Assembly (NCBI GenBank): GCA_964583985.1 | Contig: CAZOYD010000015.1 | Span: forward strand, 1 to 64,000 | From: an uncultured archaeon | GTDB lineage: Archaea; Asgardarchaeota; Lokiarchaeia; Sigyniarchaeales; SOKP01 | Direction of reading: 5' to 3' | Length of the DNA: 64,000 bases | In this document: positions 1 to 33,898 of the stretch, one piece after another | Layout of the letters: the number at the start of each line of letters is the position of its first letter | How positions within the stretch are numbered: position 1 is the stretch's first letter | The notes under the pieces: model-generated | Database searches by the model: none | The model's input: the letters and a program-made list of their open reading frames with translations, nothing else | What the model was told of the DNA's origin: nothing | Program-made: the position numbers and the translations under genes

Positions 1-342
1 TGTTATTCCGTTGGAAAGCATAATACCCGCGATAAGAATATCATTATCATCAATTCCATTGCCTTTCAATTCAAGGATATCATAGATTTCAGCAGCTTTT
101 TCTGCTTCCTTATATCCTAAAGTAAAAATCTCCATGCTGCTAATAAATTCTACCCAGATTTTATATAATTCATTATATCTTTTTTCTGATATTTTTCTCT
201 TTGTACGTTCTAACCCAATTTTAACTTCATATACTGTGATTGATGTAATGTATATAAAATCTTCTTGTTCTGTGATAACCTTTTGAATTTCATCACTTCC
301 ATTTAAATAATCGATACAAGCATTCGTATCAAGAATAATCAA
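1..342 (-). CDS. vapC: VapC-family PIN-domain toxin (partial, runs off the left window edge)
   Basis: Manual translation from TTG at 342 gives LIILDTNACIDYLNG...ITSITVYEV...IDDNDILIAGIMLSNGIT, with PIN motifs (DTN, E, D-x-L-I-A). It starts just downstream of the antitoxin stop at 344-346. Confidence 0.85.
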   Translation of the reverse strand, partial: MIILDTNACIDYLNGSDEIQKVITEQEDFIYITSITVYEVKIGLERTKRKISEKRYNELYKIWVEFISSMEIFTLGYKEAEKAAEIYDILELKGNGIDDNDILIAGIMLSNGIT

Positions 343-18378: not shown

Positions 18379-19482
18379 ATGACTGATGATGTTGTTTATA
18401 TTGATGCAAAAACTCTCGAAAATTTCATGAAAGATGTGTTCATGGGACTTGGTGTGCCTGAACAAGACGCTACAATAATAGCTAACGTGTTAATTACATC
18501 AGATTTAAGAGGAATTGATTCCCACGGCATTCAACGCTGTAAAATGTACTATGACCGGATTAAGGAAGGTATTTATGAAGTCACCACTAAAATTGATGTT
18601 ATCAAGGATGGCCCAACGACGGCATTATGGGATGGAAATTGTGGCATGGGACACGTGATCGCTCATAAAGCGATGAAAACAGCAATAGAGAAAGCTAAGA
18701 AATTTGGATTAGGTGCCGTGGCGGTGCGTAATTCTACTCATTTTGGGATTGCTGGCTACTATTCTCTCATGGCAATAAAAGAAGGAATGATTGGATTAGC
18801 CGTAACAAATGCAAGACCATCAATGCCCCCAACCTTTGGAGTGGAACCAATGCTAGGGACTAATCCATTAACCGTTGGGACTCCTACTGATGAAGATTTT
18901 CCTTTTTTAATTGATTGTGCCACTACTATTGTTCAAAGAGGGAAAGTAGAAGTATATGACAGGTTAAAAAAGCCGTTACCCGATGGCGTGATTATTACGG
19001 AAGATGGCAAAACAGAAACGGATGCTACTAAAGTATTGAAGGATTTAGGATTAGGGAAAGCTGCTTTATTACCGTTAGGAGGAAAAGGAGAAGAAACTTC
19101 TGGATATAAAGGGTATGGATATGCTACTTTAGTAGAACTCTTATCTGCTGCCCTTTCTGATGGAATTTTTTTAAAAGACACAATTGGAATTACTGAAAAA
19201 GGTCAAAAGCGATTAAAGGTTGGGCATTTTTTCTTAGCAGTTAATATTGAAAGCTTTTTACCACTCACCAATTTTAAAAAAACCGCAGGAAAGATAATGA
19301 GGGATTTGAGAAGTTCTAAAAAAGAGCCCGGACGGGAAAGGATATATACAGCTGGAGAAAAAGAATACATTTCCGAAAATAAAAGAAGTAAATCAGGCAT
19401 CCCTTTAAATAAAAGCTTACAAGATGATGTCAAAATTATGCAAAAGGAACTTCATCTGGATAAATACAAATTCAATTTTTAA
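18379..19482 (+). CDS. Ldh-2 family oxidoreductase (malate/L-lactate/sulfolactate dehydrogenase type), paralog 1
   Basis: DLRGIDSHG, VRNSTHFG, LGTNP, GYKGYG and GHFFLA motifs. Confidence 0.92.
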   Translation: MTDDVVYIDAKTLENFMKDVFMGLGVPEQDATIIANVLITSDLRGIDSHGIQRCKMYYDRIKEGIYEVTTKIDVIKDGPTTALWDGNCGMGHVIAHKAMKTAIEKAKKFGLGAVAVRNSTHFGIAGYYSLMAIKEGMIGLAVTNARPSMPPTFGVEPMLGTNPLTVGTPTDEDFPFLIDCATTIVQRGKVEVYDRLKKPLPDGVIITEDGKTETDATKVLKDLGLGKAALLPLGGKGEETSGYKGYGYATLVELLSAALSDGIFLKDTIGITEKGQKRLKVGHFFLAVNIESFLPLTNFKKTAGKIMRDLRSSKKEPGRERIYTAGEKEYISENKRSKSGIPLNKSLQDDVKIMQKELHLDKYKFNF

Positions 19483-19657: not shown

Positions 19658-20806
19658 ATGACAATGACTGAAAAAGCAAAAGCAAAATCAATTGATAATT
19701 CCCAAGACGATGATGTATTCATAAAAGCTTCAATTCTTAGAGACTTTGTTGAAGATGTATTCATAAAATTAAAAGTTCCTAAACCTGATGCTAAAATAAT
19801 TGCCCAAGGTATTATACAAGCAGATTTAAGGGGTATCGATTCTCATGGTATTCAGAGATGTAAGATGTATTTTGATCGAATCAAACAAGGTATATATAAT
19901 CCTGTAACGAATATTGAGGTAGTGAGTGATAATGAAGCAACAGCAGTAATTGATGGAAATTGTGGAATGGGTCATGTAATTGGATTTCATTCAATGAAAT
20001 TAGCAATTGCAAAAGCAAAGCGTTATGGAGTTGGAGCCGTAGCGGTGCGAAATTCTACTCATTATGGATTTGCTGGCATGTATTCTCTTATGGCAATTGA
20101 AGAAGGGATGATCGGTTTCACTACAACTAATGCAAGACCTGCAGTACCACCCACGTTTGGAGTTGAACCAATGTTGGGTACTAATCCTTTAACATATGGC
20201 GCTCCTACTGATGAGGAGTTCCCATTTCTTATAGATTGTGCAACTTCTATAATACAGAGAGGAAAAGTAGAAGTATATAATCGTACTCATAAATCTTTGC
20301 CTATTGGAGTTATTATTACCGAGGATGGAAATACTGAAACCAACCCAGAAAATGTACTTAATGACTTATACGATCGATCCGCTGCTTTATTACCTTTAGG
20401 TGGGAAAGGTGAAGCAACTTCTGGTTATAAGGGTTATGGGTATGCAACATTTGCCGAGATCTTGTCATCTGCATTACAAGATGGAATCTTTTTGAAAGAT
20501 ACAGCAGGAATTATTGAAAATGATCAAAAGAGACTGAAAGTAGGTCATTTCTTTTTGGCTATTGATATAAATCATTTTAGACCTATAAGTGGATTTAAAG
20601 AAACTACTGGGAAAATAATGCGTGAACTGAGGAATTCTAAAAAAGTTCCAGGAGTTCAAAAAATTTTTACTGCTGGAGAAAAAGAGTTCTTAAATGAAAA
20701 AGAAAATAAAATAAGGGGAATTCCTCTGAATAAAAGCGTGCAAAATGACATTAAAATCATGCAAAATGAACTAGGACTAACGCTGAAATATAGATTCCCT
20801 TTTTGA
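19658..20806 (+). CDS. Ldh-2 family oxidoreductase, paralog 2 (tandem duplicate)
   Basis: Same motifs and long identical stretches with the upstream gene (e.g. PPTFGVEPMLGTNPLT, FPFLIDCAT). Confidence 0.92.
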   Translation: MTMTEKAKAKSIDNSQDDDVFIKASILRDFVEDVFIKLKVPKPDAKIIAQGIIQADLRGIDSHGIQRCKMYFDRIKQGIYNPVTNIEVVSDNEATAVIDGNCGMGHVIGFHSMKLAIAKAKRYGVGAVAVRNSTHYGFAGMYSLMAIEEGMIGFTTTNARPAVPPTFGVEPMLGTNPLTYGAPTDEEFPFLIDCATSIIQRGKVEVYNRTHKSLPIGVIITEDGNTETNPENVLNDLYDRSAALLPLGGKGEATSGYKGYGYATFAEILSSALQDGIFLKDTAGIIENDQKRLKVGHFFLAIDINHFRPISGFKETTGKIMRELRNSKKVPGVQKIFTAGEKEFLNEKENKIRGIPLNKSVQNDIKIMQNELGLTLKYRFPF

Positions 20807-22329: not shown

Positions 22330-23562
22330 TTACAAATCTCTTGGAATTTTCATTTCAATATTCGAAATTGGATACGAAGCACACGGGTGGAAGTAATTAA
22401 ACTTTTTATCTGCAGATCGTCGCCAATCTGAAATTGGATTGATAAACACTTCTCCCGATACAAGAAGCGATCGACAAAATCCACATTCTCCAGAACGGCA
22501 TTTTGATGGTGGGGCTAAATTTGCCCTCTCTAATGCAACCAAAACAGATTCAGTGGCTAAAGCTGGAATTTCTTTAGAAAGACCTCCAATTTGAACTTTA
22601 AGCTTGAAACCTTTATCCGCAAGCTCCTTAGGAAAGCCTGGATATTTTAAAATATCTTTAATTTCTCCAAATGCTTCTCTACGGACACGTTTGACGGGTA
22701 AATTAAACTTATTGAGCTCTTTTTCTATAAAATCATACATAACCTGTGGTCCACATATAAAAAAGGTGGACGCGTGAACGTCGCAATATTTTCCTATGAT
22801 CTCGCCAGTAATGAATCCTTTTTCACATCCTTCCAAAGAGACTTCCTCACAACTCAGCACGTGGATGATTTTAATTTTAGTAGGGTTATTTTTCTCCATC
22901 TCTTTAAATTCATCATAGAAAATTATATCATCCTCTTCAGAACTTCCATATAATAATGTTAAACGAGCATCGATTTTACCTTCAATTATTGCTTTTGCAA
23001 TAGATCTAAAAGGAGTAATTCCAGATCCTCCCGCAATTCCAACAATGTTTTTCAAATCTCTCAATCTCTCAAAAAAGAAGAATCCTTCTGGACCTGAACT
23101 TTCTATCTTTGTACCAATATCCCAATTCTTCCAGAGATAATTGGTTAAGAATCCATTCTCTTCTTTTTTAATCGTGATTTCATAAAATCCATTAGCAACA
23201 TCTGTTGGCGAGGACGCAATTGAATAAGGTCTGGTGATTCGAACACCATTAACGTCAACTTTTAAGCTGAGATATTGACCCGGTCTAAAATACGATAATT
23301 TTTTAGTCTCTGATTCAGGATCGGGAATCAATTTATAGGTTTTAGTAGATCTAGTTTCCTCTTTAATAGCATCAATTATTAAAAATTGTCGCTCGGGATG
23401 TAATTTTCTCGCAAGGTCATTTATTGGATCTTTTGTAATTGGCTCGCTTGATGCACGTTCTATCCGTTTCATTCTATTAGGTACTAACTTAGTGAAAGCA
23501 AATAAGTCCTTTGTATTGCTTTTAACCGTGATGTTTAGTTTTTTCTTATTTCCTTCATTCAT
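22330..23562 (-). CDS. FNR-type FAD/NAD(P)H oxidoreductase with C-terminal [2Fe-2S] domain, copy 1
   Basis: FRPGQY, RPYSIASSP, IAGGSGITPF, FFICGP and CRSGECGFC..C motifs. Confidence 0.9.
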   Translation of the reverse strand: MNEGNKKKLNITVKSNTKDLFAFTKLVPNRMKRIERASSEPITKDPINDLARKLHPERQFLIIDAIKEETRSTKTYKLIPDPESETKKLSYFRPGQYLSLKVDVNGVRITRPYSIASSPTDVANGFYEITIKKEENGFLTNYLWKNWDIGTKIESSGPEGFFFFERLRDLKNIVGIAGGSGITPFRSIAKAIIEGKIDARLTLLYGSSEEDDIIFYDEFKEMEKNNPTKIKIIHVLSCEEVSLEGCEKGFITGEIIGKYCDVHASTFFICGPQVMYDFIEKELNKFNLPVKRVRREAFGEIKDILKYPGFPKELADKGFKLKVQIGGLSKEIPALATESVLVALERANLAPPSKCRSGECGFCRSLLVSGEVFINPISDWRRSADKKFNYFHPCASYPISNIEMKIPRDL

Positions 23563-25127
23563 GCATTATCACGCTCCTTCATTATTTTAGCATAAGTTAA
23601 TTGAGCTGATATCATCCCATCACCGAGAGCGCTACTATATCCATGTAATCGCCTGTTAAATCCACCTGCAAATTCTAATCCTTCGATATATACATCTTTT
23701 CCCATGCTCATTAATCGGGGTACAATAGAATCCCACGACTCTGGTTCATATCCATAAAAAATCCCTTTATAGTGCCTTGTATAACGTGCAAATGTAGCAG
23801 GAGTCGCTATTTCAATTTCTTCAATATGATCTCTTATAGATGTTCCCGTAGCTTTTTCAAAATTAATTAATAATTCTTCCGCAATTTTGGTTTTCGTGTC
23901 ATGGTAATCTTCAGGTTTCACATTTTCCCAAGGTTCAGATTTATAAAGTGTTGTAATATCTAATATGCATGTTCCGGGGGGTGAACAATCAGGAAGTGCA
24001 TTATTAAGAACTACACATGCTAATCCTTTAGGTGGTTTAAGAACTGTCCATGAATCATATAAAGCTTCAGTATTCATGCTATCCATAATAAAATAACCAT
24101 ATTCAGTTAAACCTAACTCCTCTGCAGAAGCATCCAAGCCTGCATAAATGACAAAACCTGTTAATCCATGAATACGAGCATTAACATCCTTATATGCAAT
24201 TTCTGGAACTTCTGATTTTGGGTAGATTAATTTATTGTAGGTTAATGTTGGAGACGCATTACATATTACATAATTTGTTTTAAATTTATCTCCATTCACA
24301 GTTTCCACTCCAGTTATTTTTCCATTCTCAACAAGTATCTTTTCAACTCTTGTATTATATTCTATTCTCCCTCCATACTCCCTGATTTTCTTATCAAATG
24401 CGGTTGTAAAACCATGCGATCTATTTGTTGGAATCCAACCTCCAAGATCAGCATAATTTTGAACCATTGTACAATAAATTGTAAAATTTATTCTACTGAT
24501 GGGTAAACCTAGATATGCCCAATATCCATTTAAAATATCTTGTGCCTTTTTAGGAATCCCCAACGCATCTTCTACCTCTTGAGTTGAATAAGCAGCAGTT
24601 TTAAGAAAATTTGAATATTCCTTCATTAAAACTCCTTGATCCGGTTTTCCTCCTGTTGATCCTATATAATTAAAAGCTTCACCTATTTCCTCTGCTAAAT
24701 CAAAGAATTTTTTAACTGATTCCCTACTGCCTGGAACTTCTTTTTCAATAGCATCGATCATATTTTCAACTCCAAATGGCATGGTAACATCCATTTTTTC
24801 ATTAGGATCAGTCACTATTAGTCGATAAGCTTCAGGAACTTGAACAAATTCAGTATCTAATTTAAATCTGTCTTCAAACATTCTTCTCACGTTACCCTTA
24901 TTAGTTTCAGGTCCATAACTAGCAAGTTCATGTAATGAAGTTTCAAATTCAAATCGCCCTCTGACAAAACTCGTCGCAACTCCACCTGGTAAATTATGTT
25001 GTTCCAGCATTAATACTTTTAAACCTTTTTGAGCAAGAAACGCTGTCGCAGAAAGCCCTCCATTTCCTGCTCCAATAACTACAACATCATAAGAGTCTTC
25101 AAGATTTTGTTCCTTTTTATTACTCAT
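23559..25127 (-). CDS. Phytoene-desaturase/RetSat-like FAD-dependent oxidoreductase, copy 1
   Basis: VVVIGAGNGG, EQHNLPGG..TSFVRGRFEFE, EIEIATPATFARYT; overlaps the reductase gene by 4 nt. Confidence 0.85.
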   Translation of the reverse strand: MSNKKEQNLEDSYDVVVIGAGNGGLSATAFLAQKGLKVLMLEQHNLPGGVATSFVRGRFEFETSLHELASYGPETNKGNVRRMFEDRFKLDTEFVQVPEAYRLIVTDPNEKMDVTMPFGVENMIDAIEKEVPGSRESVKKFFDLAEEIGEAFNYIGSTGGKPDQGVLMKEYSNFLKTAAYSTQEVEDALGIPKKAQDILNGYWAYLGLPISRINFTIYCTMVQNYADLGGWIPTNRSHGFTTAFDKKIREYGGRIEYNTRVEKILVENGKITGVETVNGDKFKTNYVICNASPTLTYNKLIYPKSEVPEIAYKDVNARIHGLTGFVIYAGLDASAEELGLTEYGYFIMDSMNTEALYDSWTVLKPPKGLACVVLNNALPDCSPPGTCILDITTLYKSEPWENVKPEDYHDTKTKIAEELLINFEKATGTSIRDHIEEIEIATPATFARYTRHYKGIFYGYEPESWDSIVPRLMSMGKDVYIEGLEFAGGFNRRLHGYSSALGDGMISAQLTYAKIMKERDNA

Positions 25128-25312: not shown

Positions 25313-28264
25313 ATGCAAGTATTAGATGTAGAAAAAGAACTTGAGAATTTTAAAGGGCAGCTAAATTTACTCGCCATGATCTTCGATACCCGCAGAAAAA
25401 TGCGTAGAGAAATTTATAATGAAAAAACCGGTTTCATTTTTAATGCAAAATATCAATTCACAACAAAGGATGATGCTTTCAATGTTTATGTAATTTTTAA
25501 AGATGGAAAGATGACTGTCGCTGATGGAAAAATTGAGCATCCTAATATCACAATTTATTATAAAGATAAAGAGACTTTAGCTAATCTTTATAGCAAGAGT
25601 GCCGAAGAATCTCTCGATTATCTTTTAACTAATGAAATGGGATATATAGGAAACATGAGTTATCTTACAAAATTCTCTTATCTTACTTCGCTTGTAATGG
25701 GGGCTAAAATTAAGGATTATAAAGGTCCTGAAAATCGCTTGCTTTATCCAATTAAAGATATTGACAATAGAAAAATCAAAAATGAAACTTTAAATCATAA
25801 AATTGATAAAGTTCAAGTATTAGAAGATCCTTATTTAGCAAAATATTCAATAAACGATTTTCCTCGGCTAAAATATTTGAAAAATCGGAGATTTGCCTTA
25901 AAACCAGCAATTTGCGTGGAAAGGGCGAAATTAGTCACAGAATATCACATGGAAAATGGTTTTGAAGTAGATAAATCCGGAAATCCTTTTGATCCAGAAC
26001 TACGACAAGCTGGAGCGGTGAATTATATAATGGCGAATAAACAGCCTATAATTCACGATGCGCATCTTATTGCTGGCTCCACTACTTCAAAAGAAGTCGG
26101 TATACCAATGTATCCAGAACTAATTGCGACAGCAATATGGCCGGAATTAAAAACAATTGGCGAACGAGAACTTAATCCGAACGATATTTCGGATAAAGAT
26201 GCTGATATTTTGAGCCTTGAAGTTTTTCCTTATTGGATGGAACGAAATGTGAGGGAATTTTGCAGAACAAAAAATAATAATCCAAAATCCCAAGCACTTG
26301 AGGAAGGGTGGGTTTTCTATTTTATGATGAAGACTAATGCTATCAGCCATACCGTCCCTGGATTTCCAATGGTGATCAATGAGGGCTTAGAAAGCATAAA
26401 AAGTAAAGCGGAGAAATTAGAACAAGAAACTAAGGATACAGAGAAAAAGAATTTTTATAAAGCGGTTCAAATCGCAATCGACGGAGTATTGATCTATTCA
26501 AAACACTTGAGTGAGGAAGCACTTAGAATTGCTTCCAATTTGGATCCTAATAACCCAGATCAAGCAAAAAGAATTATAGAATTGAAGGAGATCTCAAGAA
26601 TATGCGCTAAAGTTCCCGCAAAGCCAGCAGAAACACTTCAAGAGGCAATTCAATCAATCTGGACCAGCTTTGTATGCCTACATTGTGAGAATGCCAATTC
26701 TGCATTGTCTATTGGTCGACTTGATCAGATGTTACAACCCTTCTTCTTAAGTGATATTGAAAAAGCTGGTAATGAAGAAGAGAAACAAAATGTTATAAAA
26801 CGTGCTATTGAATTAGTAGGGTCCTTATTTCTAAGAATAAACGATCACGATCCATTAATGCCGAACGTGGGATGGAAGTTATTTGGGGGTAGCTCTTCAG
26901 ATGACACTGTAACTGTTGGAGGTGTGGATAAAGAAGGCAATAATGCAGTTAACGACATGTCATTTATCATCTTAAAAGCAAATGAAATGCTAGGTTTTCA
27001 AGATCCCAACATGAATGCCAGATATTATTCTGGGATTAATTCGAAGGAGTATTTACGAAGACTTACCGAAGTAAACATTAATATGGGGGCATCTCCAAGC
27101 ATTCACAATGATAAAACAATGATTGAAGCATTGGTCCATGAAGGTTTTTCATTGGAAGATGCAAGAGACTGGGCTGTTACCGGTTGTGTGGAACCTACTA
27201 TTGTAGGGAAACATTATGGTCATACAAATTGCATGCTTTTGAACTTAGTAGCTCCCTTAGAAATGGCATTAAATAACGGAGTTATTCCATTAACAGGAGA
27301 TAAAATGGGTATTGAAACTGGGGACGTTCGATTAGCGTTTCCCACTTTCAATGATTTTCTTGATGCTTACAAGGCACAACTGAAATATTTGGCTGAACAA
27401 TCAATTGAGATAAATAATTTTCTTGGAGAAGCGCATGAAATCATTCATCCAACACCTCTCTTATCTGGATTCTATAAAGGTCCTTTAGAAAAGGGTAAAG
27501 ATCTCATAAAAGGGGGAGCAATTTATAACACATCGGGCGTTGCACTTGTAGCGCTCACTGATGTTATTGACAGTTTATTAGTTATTAGAGATTTAGTCTA
27601 TAATAAAAAAGAAATTGATTTTGGTACCTTAATGGATGCATTACAAAACGATTTTGAAGGTTATGAGTCCATTTTAAATAAAATAGATCAAGTTCCTAAA
27701 TTTGGATCCGGTGAAGATTCTACAATCAAATTAGCCCAAGATATTATTGATTTTTGTTATGGGATATACAATTCTGCTGATAATTATAGGGGTGGTAAAT
27801 ATTTAGTCGGTTACTGGTCAATAAGCTACCATACCGGATTTGGAATGCTCACGGGCGCGTTACCATCGGGACGTAAAAAAGGAAAGGCTTTAACACCTGG
27901 ATTGACTCCTGCTCCAGGAACTACTGATATATTACTCCCTAGCATTCAGAGTGTTGCAGCTTTGGATTATTTAAAAATGGCTAACAATGCCTCATATAAT
28001 GTAAAGTTGGTTCCTCACGCTGGAGATAGTCATGAAAAAACATTAGATTTATTTACTAGTTATGTTCAGAGCTTTTTTGATTTGAATGGAATGCAGTGGC
28101 AATTTAATGTTGTATCAACAAATACTTTGAAAGATGCAATGGTCAATCCAGTAGATTATAGATGGTTATTAGTCAGAGTTTCAGGCTATAATGCATATTT
28201 TACGAAATTAAATAAAAATATGCAATTAGAAATAATTGAACGACATGAATATCAACCCAAATAA
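25313..28264 (+). CDS. Glycyl radical enzyme (PFL2/eliminase type) with N-terminal SCP2-like domain
   Basis: SIGRLDQ, TVGG, single-Cys GCVEP active-site loop and C-terminal LLVRVSGY glycyl motif. An extra ~130 aa N-terminal domain (YQFTTKD..YVIFKDGKMTVADG..PNITI..IGNMSYLTKF) resembles SCP2. Confidence 0.88.
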   Translation: MQVLDVEKELENFKGQLNLLAMIFDTRRKMRREIYNEKTGFIFNAKYQFTTKDDAFNVYVIFKDGKMTVADGKIEHPNITIYYKDKETLANLYSKSAEESLDYLLTNEMGYIGNMSYLTKFSYLTSLVMGAKIKDYKGPENRLLYPIKDIDNRKIKNETLNHKIDKVQVLEDPYLAKYSINDFPRLKYLKNRRFALKPAICVERAKLVTEYHMENGFEVDKSGNPFDPELRQAGAVNYIMANKQPIIHDAHLIAGSTTSKEVGIPMYPELIATAIWPELKTIGERELNPNDISDKDADILSLEVFPYWMERNVREFCRTKNNNPKSQALEEGWVFYFMMKTNAISHTVPGFPMVINEGLESIKSKAEKLEQETKDTEKKNFYKAVQIAIDGVLIYSKHLSEEALRIASNLDPNNPDQAKRIIELKEISRICAKVPAKPAETLQEAIQSIWTSFVCLHCENANSALSIGRLDQMLQPFFLSDIEKAGNEEEKQNVIKRAIELVGSLFLRINDHDPLMPNVGWKLFGGSSSDDTVTVGGVDKEGNNAVNDMSFIILKANEMLGFQDPNMNARYYSGINSKEYLRRLTEVNINMGASPSIHNDKTMIEALVHEGFSLEDARDWAVTGCVEPTIVGKHYGHTNCMLLNLVAPLEMALNNGVIPLTGDKMGIETGDVRLAFPTFNDFLDAYKAQLKYLAEQSIEINNFLGEAHEIIHPTPLLSGFYKGPLEKGKDLIKGGAIYNTSGVALVALTDVIDSLLVIRDLVYNKKEIDFGTLMDALQNDFEGYESILNKIDQVPKFGSGEDSTIKLAQDIIDFCYGIYNSADNYRGGKYLVGYWSISYHTGFGMLTGALPSGRKKGKALTPGLTPAPGTTDILLPSIQSVAALDYLKMANNASYNVKLVPHAGDSHEKTLDLFTSYVQSFFDLNGMQWQFNVVSTNTLKDAMVNPVDYRWLLVRVSGYNAYFTKLNKNMQLEIIERHEYQPK

Positions 28265-28298: not shown

Positions 28299-29198
28299 AT
28301 GATAGACAAAACATTAATAGTCGATATTAAAAGAAACGCATTAGATGATGGTCCAGGTATAAGAACCTTAATATTTTTTAAAGGATGCCCTCTTTCTTGT
28401 GTTTGGTGCCAAAATCCGGAGACAAAATCTCCTTCTTTGGAATTATCGTTTGATAAACAGATGTGTTCTGAATGTGGGAGTTGTATAGCTTCCTGTACCC
28501 AAGACGCTATTGATTTTGAGTATAAATTTCGCATTGATCGAAGTAAGTGTAATTTATGCGGTAGTTGCGTTGATAATTGCCCAAATTCCGCTTTAGAATT
28601 AGTAGGTAAATCATATTCAATTGAAGAATTAATGGAAATTATTTTGAAAGATAAAGTGTTTTATGATAACTCTAAAGGAGGGGTAACTCTCTCAGGTGGT
28701 GAACCTTTATATCATATATATTATGTTTATAATTTATTAAAGGAATTAAGGAAAGCTAATATTCATAGTTGCATTGAAACAGCAGGGCTCTATAATCGGG
28801 AAAAATTTGAGGAATATATTAAACCCCATGTTGATCTCATATATTTTGATTTGAAAATATTTAATCCCAAACTTCATTCCTATTATTGCAATGTTACAAA
28901 TGAACGAATTTTAGAAAATTTTGAAAATCTTATAAAGCAAGATGTGATAGAAATCTTGCCAAGAATACCATTAATTCCATCTATAACAGATAGAAAAGAG
29001 AACTTGCGTGCATTAGCAGATTATCTAAGCTCATTAAACGTCAAAGAAATAGGATTATTACCTTACAATCCCCTTTGGCTTTCTAAATCTGAAAAAATCG
29101 GGATTGAACAAAGTTATAATCATTCTGAATGGTTAAGTAAAGAAAAAAAAGAAGAAATTAAAGAGATATTTTCAGACTTTAAGTTTAAAGATTTTTAA
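28299..29198 (+). CDS. Glycyl-radical activating enzyme with ferredoxin insert
   Basis: DDGPGIRT.IFFKGCPLSCVWCQNPE, two CxxCxxCxxxC motifs and GGVTLSGGEP. Confidence 0.95.
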   Translation: MIDKTLIVDIKRNALDDGPGIRTLIFFKGCPLSCVWCQNPETKSPSLELSFDKQMCSECGSCIASCTQDAIDFEYKFRIDRSKCNLCGSCVDNCPNSALELVGKSYSIEELMEIILKDKVFYDNSKGGVTLSGGEPLYHIYYVYNLLKELRKANIHSCIETAGLYNREKFEEYIKPHVDLIYFDLKIFNPKLHSYYCNVTNERILENFENLIKQDVIEILPRIPLIPSITDRKENLRALADYLSSLNVKEIGLLPYNPLWLSKSEKIGIEQSYNHSEWLSKEKKEEIKEIFSDFKFKDF

Positions 29199-30988
29199 AC
29201 TGGTTTACCTTGTGCATCCCATCCTCTAATTTGATAGTATTTTTCTAGTAATCCTTCTAATGGAGGAATATTACCTTTAGATCCACCCTTTTCAAGCGGA
29301 GTATAAAATCTCTTCCCAAAATTATCATCTGCTTTGGTTATTCCACACTTAACATTAAAAATTCTTTTCATTTTAACGATTTCTCGACCTGCTTTCATAA
29401 AATCATCAACTGTATAAGACCTACCAGTGATTCCATTGAGACCGTTGATCCAAGGTGTGAGTTTGTGAATGAACCAAAATCCAAATATACAACCTCCAGC
29501 TGCGGAATACGCTTCGCTACCATCTTGAATTTTTACTACGGCTTCAGCAACATCATCCCCTGTGCCAAACTTATCTACTCTTTCAGTTAAACCAATTTCT
29601 TCTTTTTGATTCATGTAGGAGGATAAATGCATCGGTTCATAACAATGATATCCGCCTCGAGGGGTTGTAGCATAATCTAATGCCGTGAGATTATTAGCTC
29701 GTGGTTCATGAGCTGGAATCTCAAGCCCTTTTCCATGCATTGAAAGTTCATCTGGTAATCCCTTTAACTCACAAAAAGATCTTACTCCTTCAGCTAAATC
29801 GTTACCAATTCCTTCTCTATAAGCAATTTTGGTGAAAAGCTTTTCAATTGATTCAATATTGCCCCAAACATTTTCTTCAGTAAAATTAAAACCATCTAAG
29901 TTATCACTAATTAATTTTCTTTCAATTGATTCAAGAAAACATCCTACAGCAGCCCCAAGGCTAATTGAATCTAGTCCAAGATCATTAACAATTAAATTCC
30001 ATTTGATAATTGTTTCTAAATCATCAACCATTAAATTAGATCCTAGCATTCCAAGAGTTTCATATTCTGGACGAGTTACCCATTTTCCTTGATACTCTAA
30101 GAAACCCCGGCAAGCTGTTGGGCAATTAAAACAACCATGCATTTTTACTACTCCTCTAGCCTGCATTGCTTTTGCTCCAAGTTTTTTAATCCCTATCCAC
30201 CGTCCTTCTGTATAATTCTTGATAATTACATCTCCTACACTATACATAGAATCAATATGAACAGGTGTCCCCGAATCAGCCATAACCATTCCTAATGCTG
30301 ATTTTTTTAATAATTCTCTAAGTTCTTTAGCAGCATCATTTACTTTATCTTTATCTTGAATAGGAACTTTGTTAGTACCAAGAACCGCAATAGCTTTTAA
30401 GTTCTTACTACCCATTACAGCACCCATTCCACATCTTCCAGCAGCATGGTGCTTATCATTGATTATACATGCGTATTTTACTAAGTTTTCTCCCGCAGGA
30501 CCAATCGTGGCCACTTTAATTTTATCATTTCCAAGCAGCTCTTTTAATTTTTCATCAGTTTCTTGCGTTCCTTTACCCCATAATTCGGATGCATCCTTTA
30601 ATTCTGCAATTCCATCATTTATCCATAGATAAACTGGAGTCTTGCTTTTACCCTTAATGATGACTAGATCATAACCTGCAGTTTTTAACTCCTTACCAAA
30701 AAAACCTCCTGAAGATGCTTCCCCAAGAATTCTAGTTAGCGGCGATTTTGCTGTAATGAAGTATCTACCACAAAAAGGAATAGCCGTGCCGCAAAATGGT
30801 CCAACTGAGAAAATTAAATGATTCTTTCCATCTAATGGATCAACCTCTGGAGAAACTTCTTTTGTGAAAATTGCAGTTGCTAAGCCCATTCCTCCAATTA
30901 GCTCAACTTCCTCTTTACTTTTATAATCTTCATATTCTATCTTATTTGAATCTAAATCTACTCTAAGTATTTTAGCGATCTCAATCAC
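29195..30988 (-). CDS. aor: Aldehyde:ferredoxin oxidoreductase (W-pterin family)
   Basis: AKSPLT, IGPAGENLV, AAGRCGMGAVMGSKNLKA, CFNCPTAC, EYET, DLGLDSIS and YYQIRGWD motifs. Confidence 0.93.
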   Translation of the reverse strand: MIEIAKILRVDLDSNKIEYEDYKSKEEVELIGGMGLATAIFTKEVSPEVDPLDGKNHLIFSVGPFCGTAIPFCGRYFITAKSPLTRILGEASSGGFFGKELKTAGYDLVIIKGKSKTPVYLWINDGIAELKDASELWGKGTQETDEKLKELLGNDKIKVATIGPAGENLVKYACIINDKHHAAGRCGMGAVMGSKNLKAIAVLGTNKVPIQDKDKVNDAAKELRELLKKSALGMVMADSGTPVHIDSMYSVGDVIIKNYTEGRWIGIKKLGAKAMQARGVVKMHGCFNCPTACRGFLEYQGKWVTRPEYETLGMLGSNLMVDDLETIIKWNLIVNDLGLDSISLGAAVGCFLESIERKLISDNLDGFNFTEENVWGNIESIEKLFTKIAYREGIGNDLAEGVRSFCELKGLPDELSMHGKGLEIPAHEPRANNLTALDYATTPRGGYHCYEPMHLSSYMNQKEEIGLTERVDKFGTGDDVAEAVVKIQDGSEAYSAAGGCIFGFWFIHKLTPWINGLNGITGRSYTVDDFMKAGREIVKMKRIFNVKCGITKADDNFGKRFYTPLEKGGSKGNIPPLEGLLEKYYQIRGWDAQGKPV

Positions 30989-31127: not shown

Positions 31128-32348
31128 TTATCGATTTCTTGGGACAATAATTTCAAGATTAGACATGGGATATGATGAACAAGGATGAAAGTAATTACGT
31201 AATTTATCCGCAATTCTTCTTTTATCATCAAAAGGATTCACGAATATTTCACCAGATATTAATGCAGAACGACAGAATCCACAGGAACCTGATCTACACC
31301 TGGAGGGTGGTGCTAATTTTGCTCTCTCTAATGCTGTTAAAACCGATTCAGTTGCTAATGCAGGAATTTCAGTTAATAAAGATCCCATCTCTACTTTTAT
31401 TGAAAAGGTTTTTCCAATGCATTCTTTAGGATAATTTGGAATAGATAATGGGTTTCTTATTTCTCCAAAAACTTCCTTACGTATTCTTTTATATGGCAGA
31501 TTAAATTTTGCTAATTCATTCTCAACGAATTCATACATGATTTGAGGACCGCAAATAAAAAATGAACATTTATTTATATCCACGTGTTTCTGTATTATTT
31601 CAGCATTAATGAATCCTTCTTCACACCCTTCTAAGTGAACTTCCTCACAGCTTAGTACATGAATGATTTTTATTTGATTGGGGAAATTCTTTTCAAACTT
31701 TCTGAATTCATCATAAAAGATGATGTCATCCTCTTCACTACTTCCATAAAATACTGTTAGTTTAGCATTAATTGTTCCATTTATTATGGATTTTGCGATT
31801 GATCTGAATGGGGTAATGCCTGAACCCCCTGCTATTCCTACTATGTGATTTAAATCCCTTAGTGGTTCAAAATAAAAATTACCTTCGGGACCAGAACTTT
31901 CTATTTTAGAACCAATTTTCCAATTATCCCATATATATTGAGTTAAAAATCCATCCTCTGCTTTCTTAATTGTAATTTCATAAAAACCATAAAGACTATC
32001 TAATGGAGATGAGGAAATTGAATAGGGACGTGTTATTACTGTTCCATTTATTTGTACTTTTAGACTCAGGTATTGTCCTGCTCTAAAATAAGCTGTTTTC
32101 TTTTCATCAGATTCTGAAATAAGACGGATTGTTTTTGTTGACTTCGTTTCTTCTCTTATCTCACTTATGACTAATGTTTGCTTTTCAGGATGTAATTTTC
32201 TGGACAGATTCTTGATTGGATCATTCTTTGGGAGGTTCGAAGCTTTTTGTATCAATTTGCTCCTTTTAGAGATCAGATTTTTAAATGCAAGCAAATCTCT
32301 AATATTACCTTTTACGCTGAGATCAAACTTTTTATTATGGTTCTTCAT
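31128..32348 (-). CDS. FNR-type oxidoreductase with [2Fe-2S] domain, copy 2
   Basis: FRAGQY, RPYSISSSP, IAGGSGITPF and CRSGSCGFC motifs; paralog of 22330-23562. Confidence 0.9.
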   Translation of the reverse strand: MKNHNKKFDLSVKGNIRDLLAFKNLISKRSKLIQKASNLPKNDPIKNLSRKLHPEKQTLVISEIREETKSTKTIRLISESDEKKTAYFRAGQYLSLKVQINGTVITRPYSISSSPLDSLYGFYEITIKKAEDGFLTQYIWDNWKIGSKIESSGPEGNFYFEPLRDLNHIVGIAGGSGITPFRSIAKSIINGTINAKLTVFYGSSEEDDIIFYDEFRKFEKNFPNQIKIIHVLSCEEVHLEGCEEGFINAEIIQKHVDINKCSFFICGPQIMYEFVENELAKFNLPYKRIRKEVFGEIRNPLSIPNYPKECIGKTFSIKVEMGSLLTEIPALATESVLTALERAKLAPPSRCRSGSCGFCRSALISGEIFVNPFDDKRRIADKLRNYFHPCSSYPMSNLEIIVPRNR

Positions 32349-33898
32349 TATTCTCCCTCCCTAATTTTTTGTAAAGTTAAAAATGCTGATATCTGTCCAG
32401 AAATTAAAGAATTAGTATAACTTACTCCTTGTGAAGAATATCCTCCACATATCTCTAAACCCTCAATATATTTCTCATCATTCATTGCCATTAATCGTGG
32501 AATAAACGAATCCCAAGGATCACTTTCATATCCATACGCAGAACCTTGAAATGCACTTGTATATCGTGAAAGGGTTTGGGGAGTAGCAATCTCAATTTCT
32601 TCAATGTGATCTTTAATTGATATATTAAGTGCTTTCTCAAATGATATAATTAAATCATTCGCAATTTTAGATTTTATATTGAAATAATCCTCTGATTTCA
32701 CGTTATCCCATACACCTGGTAAGAAAAAGGTTGTTATCATCAACATTGAAGTATTTGGAGGACTACAATCATTTATAATGTTATTTAAACAAGTTGTTGC
32801 TTGTACCATGGGTGAATTTAATGTTTTAAATGATTCATATATTTTTTCTGTATTCATTGAATTAAAAATGTGATAACTGTAATTTTTTATTCCTAATTGT
32901 TCAGCAGAAGCATTTAAACCTAAATAGACCGAAAAACAACTAATTGCGTGTTTTCGGGCATTAACAAATTTATAAGCGATCTCTGGAACCTCTTCCTTTG
33001 GAAAAATTAAATTGTTATATAATATAGTGGGAGAGGCGTTTGAAATAACATTATCCGTTTGGATTTTATCTCCTTTAGAGGTTTGAACTCCAATAATCTT
33101 ACCATCTTTGACTAAAATCTTTTCCACCCTCGTATTATATTCAACTTTTCCCCCGTTTTCTCGAATTTTAGATTCTAAAGCCGTTGAAAAATCGTGTGTT
33201 CTGTATTTCGGGAAATATGCTTTCCGAGTGAGGAAGTAGTAATGCATAGCTGAATAAAAGGTGAAATTAACCCTATTCGTCGGGATTCCAATATAGATCC
33301 AATATGCATCTAAAATTTCTTGTGCTTGTTGAGGGATTTTTAAAGCATTATTAACTTCATCTAAACTATATGGAACTGATTTTAAAAAACTCTTATACTT
33401 TTTTAAAAGCACGTCCTTCTCTGGATTACCTTTTGATTCTGTAAGATAGGTAATGGCTTCATTGATTTCCTCTGATAAAGTTAGATAATTCAAGAGGGAG
33501 TCTTTACTACCAGGAACGGCATTATCTATTGCTGCTACAAAATCCTCAAGACCAAAAGGGACTACAATATTAATCGGATCGTTTATATCAGTACATATTA
33601 ATCTAAACGCCTCAGGTATTTCTACAAATTCGACTTGCAAACCTAAATCATCCTCGAATAATCTTCTAATCGACCCTTTATTATCGTGAGGACCATAGTC
33701 ACATAATTCATGAAGAGTACCTTCAAATTCGAATCTGCCCCTTACGAAACTAGTGGCAAACCCCCCTGGTAAATTATGTTGTTCGAAAAGAATTACCTTT
33801 ACTCCTTCTAAAGCAAGTTGAGCCGCAGCTGTCAAACCACCATTTCCGGCTCCGATTATAACTACTTCATAAAATTCATTAAATTTCTGATCACTCAT
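32348..33898 (-). CDS. Phytoene-desaturase/RetSat-like FAD-dependent oxidoreductase, copy 2
   Basis: VVIIGAGNGG, EQHNLPGGFATSFVRGRFEFE, EIEIATP; paralog of 23559-25127; 1-nt stop/start overlap with the reductase gene. Confidence 0.85.
   Translation of the reverse strand: MSDQKFNEFYEVVIIGAGNGGLTAAAQLALEGVKVILFEQHNLPGGFATSFVRGRFEFEGTLHELCDYGPHDNKGSIRRLFEDDLGLQVEFVEIPEAFRLICTDINDPINIVVPFGLEDFVAAIDNAVPGSKDSLLNYLTLSEEINEAITYLTESKGNPEKDVLLKKYKSFLKSVPYSLDEVNNALKIPQQAQEILDAYWIYIGIPTNRVNFTFYSAMHYYFLTRKAYFPKYRTHDFSTALESKIRENGGKVEYNTRVEKILVKDGKIIGVQTSKGDKIQTDNVISNASPTILYNNLIFPKEEVPEIAYKFVNARKHAISCFSVYLGLNASAEQLGIKNYSYHIFNSMNTEKIYESFKTLNSPMVQATTCLNNIINDCSPPNTSMLMITTFFLPGVWDNVKSEDYFNIKSKIANDLIISFEKALNISIKDHIEEIEIATPQTLSRYTSAFQGSAYGYESDPWDSFIPRLMAMNDEKYIEGLEICGGYSSQGVSYTNSLISGQISAFLTLQKIREGE

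Follow-up and report, generated by a model that had tools for sequence, protein, structure and literature searches.

A glycyl radical enzyme family of Asgard archaea and some bacteria with a predicted N-terminal SCP2-type domain and eliminase-like catalytic residues

The window analyzed here, a stretch of 64,000 nucleotides from the genome of an uncultured lokiarchaeial organism of the Sigyniarchaeales (contig CAZOYD010000015.1 of assembly GCA_964583985.1), is AT-rich (ca. 31% G+C) and carries at positions 25313-28264 of its forward strand the gene for an oxygen-sensitive glycyl radical enzyme (GRE) of 983 amino acids, the sole long frame at that position. A Pfam scan of this protein recognizes a PFL-like domain at residues 186-844 (E 2.7e-159) and a Gly_radical domain at residues 861-964 (E 2.5e-22) and leaves residues 1-185 without significant match. 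A first-pass annotation made from the DNA alone had proposed that the beginning of the protein (positions 25313-25720, i.e., residues 1-136) is an SCP2-like lipid-carrier domain fused to the enzyme, and the motifs that it listed (YQFTT, VYVIFKDGKMTVADG, PNITIYY, GYIGNMSYLTKF, and TGCVEP) are each present in the translated frame. The unusual length to which it had drawn attention is likewise real and amounts to an extra ca. 150 to 185 residues at the N-terminus, given that other GREs of the same genome span 781 to 874 residues and solved GREs mostly 776 to 850. The domains and catalytic residues of this protein, henceforth SCP2-GRE, and the genes around it are listed in Table 1.

Table 1. Features of the SCP2-GRE gene and its surroundings (positions in the window)
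Feature	Positions	Strand	Evidence or remark
SCP2-fold N-terminal domain, residues 1-131	25313..25705	+	AlphaFold, Foldseek, VIA-align, Pfam SCP2
Conserved linker, residues ~132-156, invariant YKGPxN	25706..25780	+	joins SCP2 domain to usual GRE N-terminus
GRE catalytic core, residues 157-983	25781..28264	+	Pfam PFL-like, Gly_radical; VIA Z 43.4 to 1r8w
His346	26348-26350	+	invariant in family
Cys625 of Cys loop TGCVEP	27185-27187	+	invariant in family
Glu627 of Cys loop TGCVEP	27191-27193	+	invariant in family
Gly958, glycyl radical site RVSGY	28184-28186	+	invariant in family
GRE-activating radical SAM enzyme	28299..29198	+	34 bp downstream of GRE; TIGR02494 294.9 bits versus cut-off 174
Tungsten-type aldehyde:ferredoxin oxidoreductase (AOR)	29195..30988	-	Pfam AFOR_N, AFOR_C; convergent with activase, 4-bp overlap
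FNR-like FAD/NAD/[2Fe-2S] reductase	22330-23562	-	cassette 22330..25127, divergent from GRE
Distant CrtI-family flavoprotein	23559-25127	-	cassette 22330..25127, divergent from GRE
Second diverged CrtI-like/FNR cassette copy	31128-33898	-	
Tandem Ldh_2-family dehydrogenases	18379-19482, 19658-20806	+	best match L-sulfolactate dehydrogenase, under cut-off

A homologue search with residues 1-185 as query found ca. 120 proteins, and because nearly all of them are 980 to 1000 residues long and share the same N-terminal start, the extension is, as judged from sequence comparison, neither a mis-called start nor a gene fusion artefact; the shorter ones have no Gly_radical match and look truncated. 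Most of these homologues come from metagenome-assembled genomes of Asgard archaea (Loki/Promethearchaeota, Hermod-, Thor-, Odin-, and Freyarchaeota) and a few from bacteria (Desulfatibacillum, Desulfomonilia, Anaerolineales, and Thermodesulfobacteriota). Their precomputed Pfam annotation comprises the PFL-like and Gly_radical domains only, plus a YjjI-like match in three of them.

The N-terminal domain was modelled with AlphaFold on residues 1-190 (23 homologues), and the mean predicted local distance difference test score (pLDDT) of 10-residue blocks ranges from 69 to 94 across residues 1-130. Residues 1-131 are predicted to form, in this order, a long helix, four strands, two helices, a fifth strand, and a C-terminal helix that follows a GNMSYLTKF motif. 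When this model was compared to the PDB with Foldseek, a check already named in the first-pass annotation, the top ca. 44 matches were all SCP2 folds (E 2e-5 to 8e-3, probability 0.96-1.0), including AF1534, UbiJ-SCP2, the C-domains of alkylsulfatases, human SCP2, the SCP2-like domain of MFE-2, and insect as well as yeast SCP2. Similarly, the ten best matches of a VIA-align comparison with 48,161 PDB representatives are all SCP2 proteins (Z 10.9-6.5, with 100 to 115 residues aligned within model positions 4..131), and the best of them exceed the stated background of this method, in which models that have no true match reach a best Z of 7-8. Among the weaker VIA-align matches (Z 4-6) are SCP2-like accessory domains, namely those of the SpnK methyltransferase and of Eis-type GNAT acetyltransferases; the latter are not known as lipid carriers.

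At the level of sequence, the Pfam SCP2 profile matches residues 1-135 of the window protein, scanned alone, with an E-value of 0.0089 and 16.8 bits compared to a gathering score of 21.3, and a 196-residue N-terminal piece scanned alone gives a weak match at residues 44-122 (E 0.021). The same profile is the best match in 18 of 19 N-terminal domains of the family, every time below threshold and with a best E-value of 3.8e-4. A profile of the domain itself found nothing beyond chance matches among PDB sequences (E 1.4), and the link to SCP2 is therefore invisible to a plain sequence search of solved chains. Taken together, the proposed SCP2 fold is borne out in predicted structure, where both structural searches place SCP2 proteins on top, and is accompanied by consistent sub-threshold Pfam SCP2 matches, so that we consider the assignment sound for the modelled domain.

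Between this domain and the enzyme proper lies a linker with the invariant columns Y136, K137, G138, P139, and N141 (YKGPxN), followed by further invariant residues (L160, K163, D165, V167, L170, D172, and P173). In the model of the N-terminal piece by itself, residues 131-190 come out as disordered (block mean pLDDT 31-41). In the full-length AlphaFold model (58 sequences; mean pLDDT 88.8, predicted template modelling score 0.92), the same residues reach block values of 77 to 97 and the SCP2 domain 82 to 95. Because the linker gains order in the full-length model and carries invariant residues, the SCP2 domain appears to be held in a fixed arrangement, docked against the GRE core as predicted. 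Solved GREs begin to align only at model residue ~157-184, and none of them spans model residues 1-150.

The catalytic core shows the features of the GRE superfamily, i.e., a Gly_radical domain with the RVxG site (RVSGY), a ten-stranded barrel with the catalytic Cys loop, and a dedicated activase. It superimposes on the glycerol dehydratase (GD) structure 1r8w over 774 residues with a Z of 43.4 and a root-mean-square deviation of 1.9 Å, and GD, propanediol dehydratase (PD), PflD of Archaeoglobus fulgidus, and CutC as a group reach Z values of 42 to 43 (deviation ~2 Å), compared to 34 to 37 for the X-succinate synthases and 31 for pyruvate formate-lyase (PFL). By sequence, the best PDB matches belong to eliminases and isomerases, namely HpyG (8id1), A. 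fulgidus PflD (2f3o), HypD, PD, GD, and CutC (E 1e-111 to 1e-100), with weaker matches to MasD (2e-57), TutD (2e-47), and PFL (1e-25). The GCVEP loop with Cys625 and Glu627 places the enzyme in the class with a CXE motif; in printed alignments these two residues correspond to GD Cys433 and Glu435 and His346 to GD His164, and neither these three nor Gly958 vary among 113 family members.

According to a 2026 review of GREs, all C-O eliminases as well as the isomerases retain the CXE motif, the leaving hydroxyl in GD is protonated by His164 as the general acid, and a two-Cys motif is confined to PFL and TdcE. The first-pass annotation was hence right that the single Cys of TGCVEP does not belong to a true PFL, and PFL was rejected as an assignment on this ground together with a TIGR01255 score of 125 bits (cut-off 994). 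The view of an uncharacterized GRE subclass is supported as well, since no NCBIfam equivalog came near its cut-off in our scan and even the generic PFL2/glycerol-dehydratase model TIGR01774 gave 528.7 bits compared to a cut-off of 678.2. Several positions of the GD pocket are replaced by residues that are themselves near-invariant in the family (D447 by N639, H281/S282 by S463/A464, Y339 by D530, and Y640 by W835); we take these GD residues to be the diol-binding ones described in the GD structure paper. With its diol-binding residues replaced and TIGR01774 under cut-off, a glycerol or 1,2-propanediol dehydratase proper was rejected, too. Further family signatures are FGGSSSDD, GKHYGHTN, and YWSISYH. 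Since the catalytic residues match those of GD while the other pocket positions differ and yet are near-invariant, the catalytic machinery is, on aligned residues, eliminase-like and the substrate pocket peculiar to the SCP2-GRE family.

We followed the family across 119 loci (39 genomic and 80 metagenomic ones; G+C content 0.28-0.69), in which all 107 full-length members carry the domain. The 39 genomic loci, which had been found with the N-terminal domain, are without exception from Asgard archaea, and the high-GC contigs with an SCP2-GRE are presumably bacterial. The domain occurs in 32 of 300 sampled genomes of the phylum with a patchy distribution: within the genus of the window's organism, 14 of 26 genomes have it, and within its family 25 of 67. 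Compared to Desulfatibacillum-type sequences, the SCP2 domain is 50% and the core 64% identical, and a second subfamily with 26 to 32% identity has also kept the domain. Some Asgard genomes encode a second, more divergent copy with an open frame of ~980-1015 residues, and an exhaustive profile search added further GREs of 998 to 1010 residues with a divergent N-terminal domain as well as many stand-alone homologues of ~150 residues that Pfam leaves unnamed. Split forms with a small SCP2 gene beside a shorter GRE were not found in the 119 loci, which carries little weight because these loci had been chosen by the N-terminal domain or family motifs.

The genome to which the window belongs (3.8 Mb in 138 contigs) encodes six PFL-like GREs, which looks like a large repertoire for an archaeon, and the N-terminal domain is found on the GRE of the window alone. 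The other five genes lie at C40:11696-13636, C31:5992-7944, C103:3700-5580, C11:48655-50793, and C46:23446-24951, with proteins of 781 to 874 residues; three of them were compared and are 29 to 31% identical to the GRE of the window, without SCP2 domain. Elsewhere in this genome, contig C47 carries a stand-alone SCP2-like open reading frame (ORF) of 137 residues (L045:1354-1767, forward strand) that ends in ...GDLVIDGNLQDAIAYGEIL and lies near genes for a multi-pass membrane protein and a fragment of a geranylgeranyl-reductase-like FAD protein as well as a 406-residue ORF that is open at the locus end. The SCP2-like profile also matches proteins of other architectures, a 2386-residue protein (P0133) in 11 stretches and a 766-residue protein with pentapeptide repeats (P0176).

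In the neighborhood of the GRE, defined as the nearest 4 ORFs on either side, 75 of 119 loci have a gene for the activase; among the 42 loci that extend at least 4 ORFs to each side, 35 have one. An AOR gene is found nearby in 40 of 119 loci, on either strand and on high-GC contigs as much as on low-GC ones of the Asgard type, whereas we roughly estimate a chance of ~3% per locus for an AOR within ±4 genes in view of 14 AOR genes in the 3.8-Mb genome (including the copy in the window). Two AOR paralogues, 87 to 89% and 55 to 59% identical to the AOR of the window, occupy this position in different loci, which suggests that the association with the GRE has been maintained or re-acquired. AOR is the candidate consumer of an aldehyde product. 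When related GREs are collapsed by single linkage at 75% identity into 20 clusters, an adjacent AOR is seen in 3 of them, an enoyl-CoA hydratase in 5, a TetR regulator in 5, and an acyl-CoA ligase in 3. These neighbors, each present in some lineages and none universal, fit a hydrophobic substrate that ends up as an acyl chain.

Other genes near the GRE are more restricted. In two high-GC metagenome loci, the SCP2-GRE adjoins a gene for a V4R-domain protein (L047:6189-6929 and L048:8834-9595, both on the reverse strand) together with an enoyl-CoA hydratase gene; V4R is a binding domain for small hydrophobic molecules. In several metagenome loci of low G+C content and Asgard type, activase and AOR are separated by a gene for a 187-residue Roadblock/LC7-domain protein (L063:14039-14602 on the forward strand and also L060, L061, L065, L072, L073, and L076). 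In the window, the genes for GRE, activase, and AOR are flanked by the two CrtI-like/FNR cassettes, of which the flavoproteins of the CrtI/carotenoid-isomerase family score well under the family cut-offs. These cassettes, the Ldh_2 genes, and a gene for a CDF transporter accompany the GRE in a single one of the 20 clusters, exclusively on low-GC contigs; for the cassettes, such confinement means that shared ancestry can explain the synteny. All of them were therefore set aside as parts of the system and probably reflect the synteny of one low-GC lineage.

The reading that we favor, and that we regard as evenly poised between right and wrong, is an eliminase-type GRE whose substrate is hydroxylated and either hydrophobic or amphipathic, with the SCP2 domain as a module for substrate capture and presentation and an aldehyde product passed on to AOR and, in part of the lineages, to enzymes of the beta-oxidation type. 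From the fold, the catalytic motifs, the conservation in the family, and the gene linkage, we infer a chemistry, a lipid-like nature of the substrate, and a hand-over role for the domain that would be connected as follows. The radical SAM activase encoded next door would install the radical on Gly958, and Cys625 would become the working thiyl radical. Glu627 as the CXE glutamate and His346 as the counterpart of GD His164 would then deprotonate a hydroxyl of the substrate and protonate the leaving group on the adjacent carbon, so that a 1,2-elimination would yield an aldehyde or ketone. Residues 1-131 would serve as an SCP2-type carrier of hydrophobic ligands, kept against the core by the conserved linker, and might capture a poorly soluble, hydroxyl-bearing, lipid-like substrate such that its polar end faces the active site in the interior of the enzyme. 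The adjacent AOR could then oxidize the aldehyde in many lineages, and in some lineages the resulting acid might be activated and degraded by acyl-CoA ligase and enoyl-CoA hydratase. The SCP2-GRE family is widespread and probably works on a greasy, hydroxyl-bearing molecule. A more specific version, in which the enzyme would be an oxygen-independent lyase for membrane-type lipids that attacks, e.g., ether lipids (at the glycerol or head group) or long-chain diols by radical 1,2-elimination, with the aldehyde going to AOR for oxidation, seems a long shot.

Several observations weigh against the favored interpretation. The SCP2 fold assignment is one of predicted models, membership by sequence stays under the Pfam threshold (16.8 versus 21.3 bits for the window protein), and in certain other enzymes the SCP2-like domain has a structural role. 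The conserved pocket is mostly polar (FGGSSSDD, GKHYGHTN, and N639) and would fit a polar head group or a small polar substrate equally well. Furthermore, AOR adjacency is reduced to the 3 of 20 clusters mentioned above once related GREs are collapsed, and the AOR gene of the window is convergent with that of the activase and not co-transcribed. Some of these points feed a different explanation that we consider unlikely though worth keeping in sight, namely that the SCP2-like domain plays a structural or regulatory role, for example as an oligomerization surface, a gate for the activase or the substrate channel, or a membrane tether, while the substrate is a small polar metabolite. Apart from the polar residues in the predicted pocket, this would agree with the accessory role of the fold in Eis-type GNAT acetyltransferases and the SpnK methyltransferase and with the Ldh_2 dehydrogenases and CDF transporter of the window, which have no obvious link to lipids. 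The Eis-type and SpnK matches are the weaker ones (Z 4-6), however, and the best structural matches are true lipid-binding SCP2 proteins rather than such accessory variants; in addition, the domain has been kept over deep divergence, and the high-GC (presumably bacterial) loci have enoyl-CoA hydratase, acyl-CoA ligase, and V4R/TetR-type neighbors.

Two further alternatives retain the SCP2 domain as the device that captures the substrate and differ in the chemistry of the core. It is rather improbable, in our estimate, that the enzyme uses its CXE motif for another reaction on an amphipathic substrate, be it C-N or C-S cleavage as in CutC and IslA or a redox-neutral isomerization or ring opening as in HplG, YbiW, and PflD. 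CutC, HplG, and IslA are all strong matches, and D530/D531, a conserved acidic pair, together with H634/H637 could offer a binding site for an ammonium or other charged head group; with GD D447, H281, and S282 replaced, the pocket is not a simple diol pocket, and the 2026 review has the CXE motif kept in GRE isomerases as well. On the other hand, the equivalent of GD His164, the general acid for water loss, is invariant, and the recurrent adjacency of AOR fits an aldehyde product, though C-N cleavage as in CutC would fit likewise. We find it very improbable that the protein is a hydrocarbon-activating X-succinate synthase of the Ass/Bss type to which the SCP2 domain would deliver an alkane for fumarate addition, as proposed for GREs of Hermodarchaeota, which had been annotated as Ass/Bss from 29 to 33% identity to AssA1 and a single Cys (PMC8163825). 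Besides this annotation of Asgard GREs, the presence of homologues in the alkane/alkene degrader Desulfatibacillum would suit such a role, and so would a lipid carrier for an alkane. Sequence and structure of the protein are nevertheless closer to eliminases than to MasD and TutD (E 1e-111 versus 2e-57 and 2e-47; Z 42-43 versus 34-37), and its loop is GCVEP with the eliminase glutamate rather than ACMSP as in a methylalkylsuccinate synthase sequence (PMC8163825, supplement). The AOR linkage indicates an aldehyde product, and the 34 bp between GRE and activase leave no room for the gene of a small FeS subunit; among adjacent ORFs of at least 80 residues, the size range searched for FeS accessory subunits, there are only the known genes and one antisense ORF, and ORFs below 80 residues were not searched.

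The substrates known for characterized GRE eliminases are small and soluble, and a conserved clade of eliminase-type GREs that contains a lipid-carrier fold of its own would bring water-insoluble ones within reach of glycyl radical chemistry. It would also indicate an unrecognized step of anaerobic lipid turnover in marine sediments that is carried out in part by archaeal relatives of eukaryotes. If the interpretation as a lipid lyase were true, Asgard archaea of sediments along with sulfate-reducing and fermenting bacteria would gain a route to lipids thought to be refractory under anoxia. For the annotation of Asgard GREs as alkyl- or benzylsuccinate synthases, the catalytic motifs of SCP2-GREs are relevant as they favor elimination over fumarate addition. 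The family is directly accessible to experiments since GRE and activase form a compact gene pair and the candidate domain lends itself to separate expression. Our literature search found no paper linking GREs with SCP2 or sterol carrier proteins and none of relevance on GREs and ether lipids; all characterized PFL-like GREs are bacterial according to the 2026 review, which names the functionally uncharacterized archaeal GREs as the clearest gap.

Among known systems, SCP2 carriers and modules such as human SCP2 and MFE-2 SCP2L, AF1534 (3bn8), UbiJ-SCP2 (6h6p), and the C-domain of SdsA1 (2cfu) share the same alpha/beta fold of ~100-115 residues with the N-terminal domain of the GRE. Its GNM...L..KF motif before the last helix is comparable to what we take to be the corresponding motif of human SCP2, GNMGLAMKL. 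The SCP2-like modules of alkylsulfatases (SdsA1) and of the UbiJ ubiquinone-synthesis complex are described as handing hydrophobic substrates to enzymes and thereby offer a precedent. Identity to the SCP2 carriers is only 11 to 16%, in line with the sub-threshold Pfam score, and the fusion of the domain to the N-terminus of a GRE is an arrangement absent from the solved structures aligned with the model. The alkyl- and benzylsuccinate synthases (MasD, 9o8u; TutD/BssA, 4pkf) differ in that they have no CXE glutamate and leave the accessory role to separate FeS subunits instead of an SCP2 fusion; they take in hydrophobic substrates via a hydrophobic channel that is gated by accessory subunits (2026 review).

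With GD of C. butyricum (1r8w/1r9d) and the GRE-type PD (5i2a, 9rco), SCP2-GREs have in common the ten-stranded barrel, the CXE Cys loop, the His164 equivalent, the RVxG site, and an activase of the dicluster type. The identity to GD is 30%, and both dehydratases have no N-terminal domain; their residue 2 aligns with residue 157 of the SCP2-GRE. PflD/PFL2 of A. fulgidus (2f3o) has a debated function that the 2026 review leaves unassigned and is the second-best PDB match by sequence (E 2.5e-111; Z 43.0). Like SCP2-GREs, it comes from an archaeon and has the CXE loop and an ENxxxAxS strand motif, but at 776 residues it has no SCP2 domain and keeps an Asp at the position of GD D447, where SCP2-GREs have an Asn.

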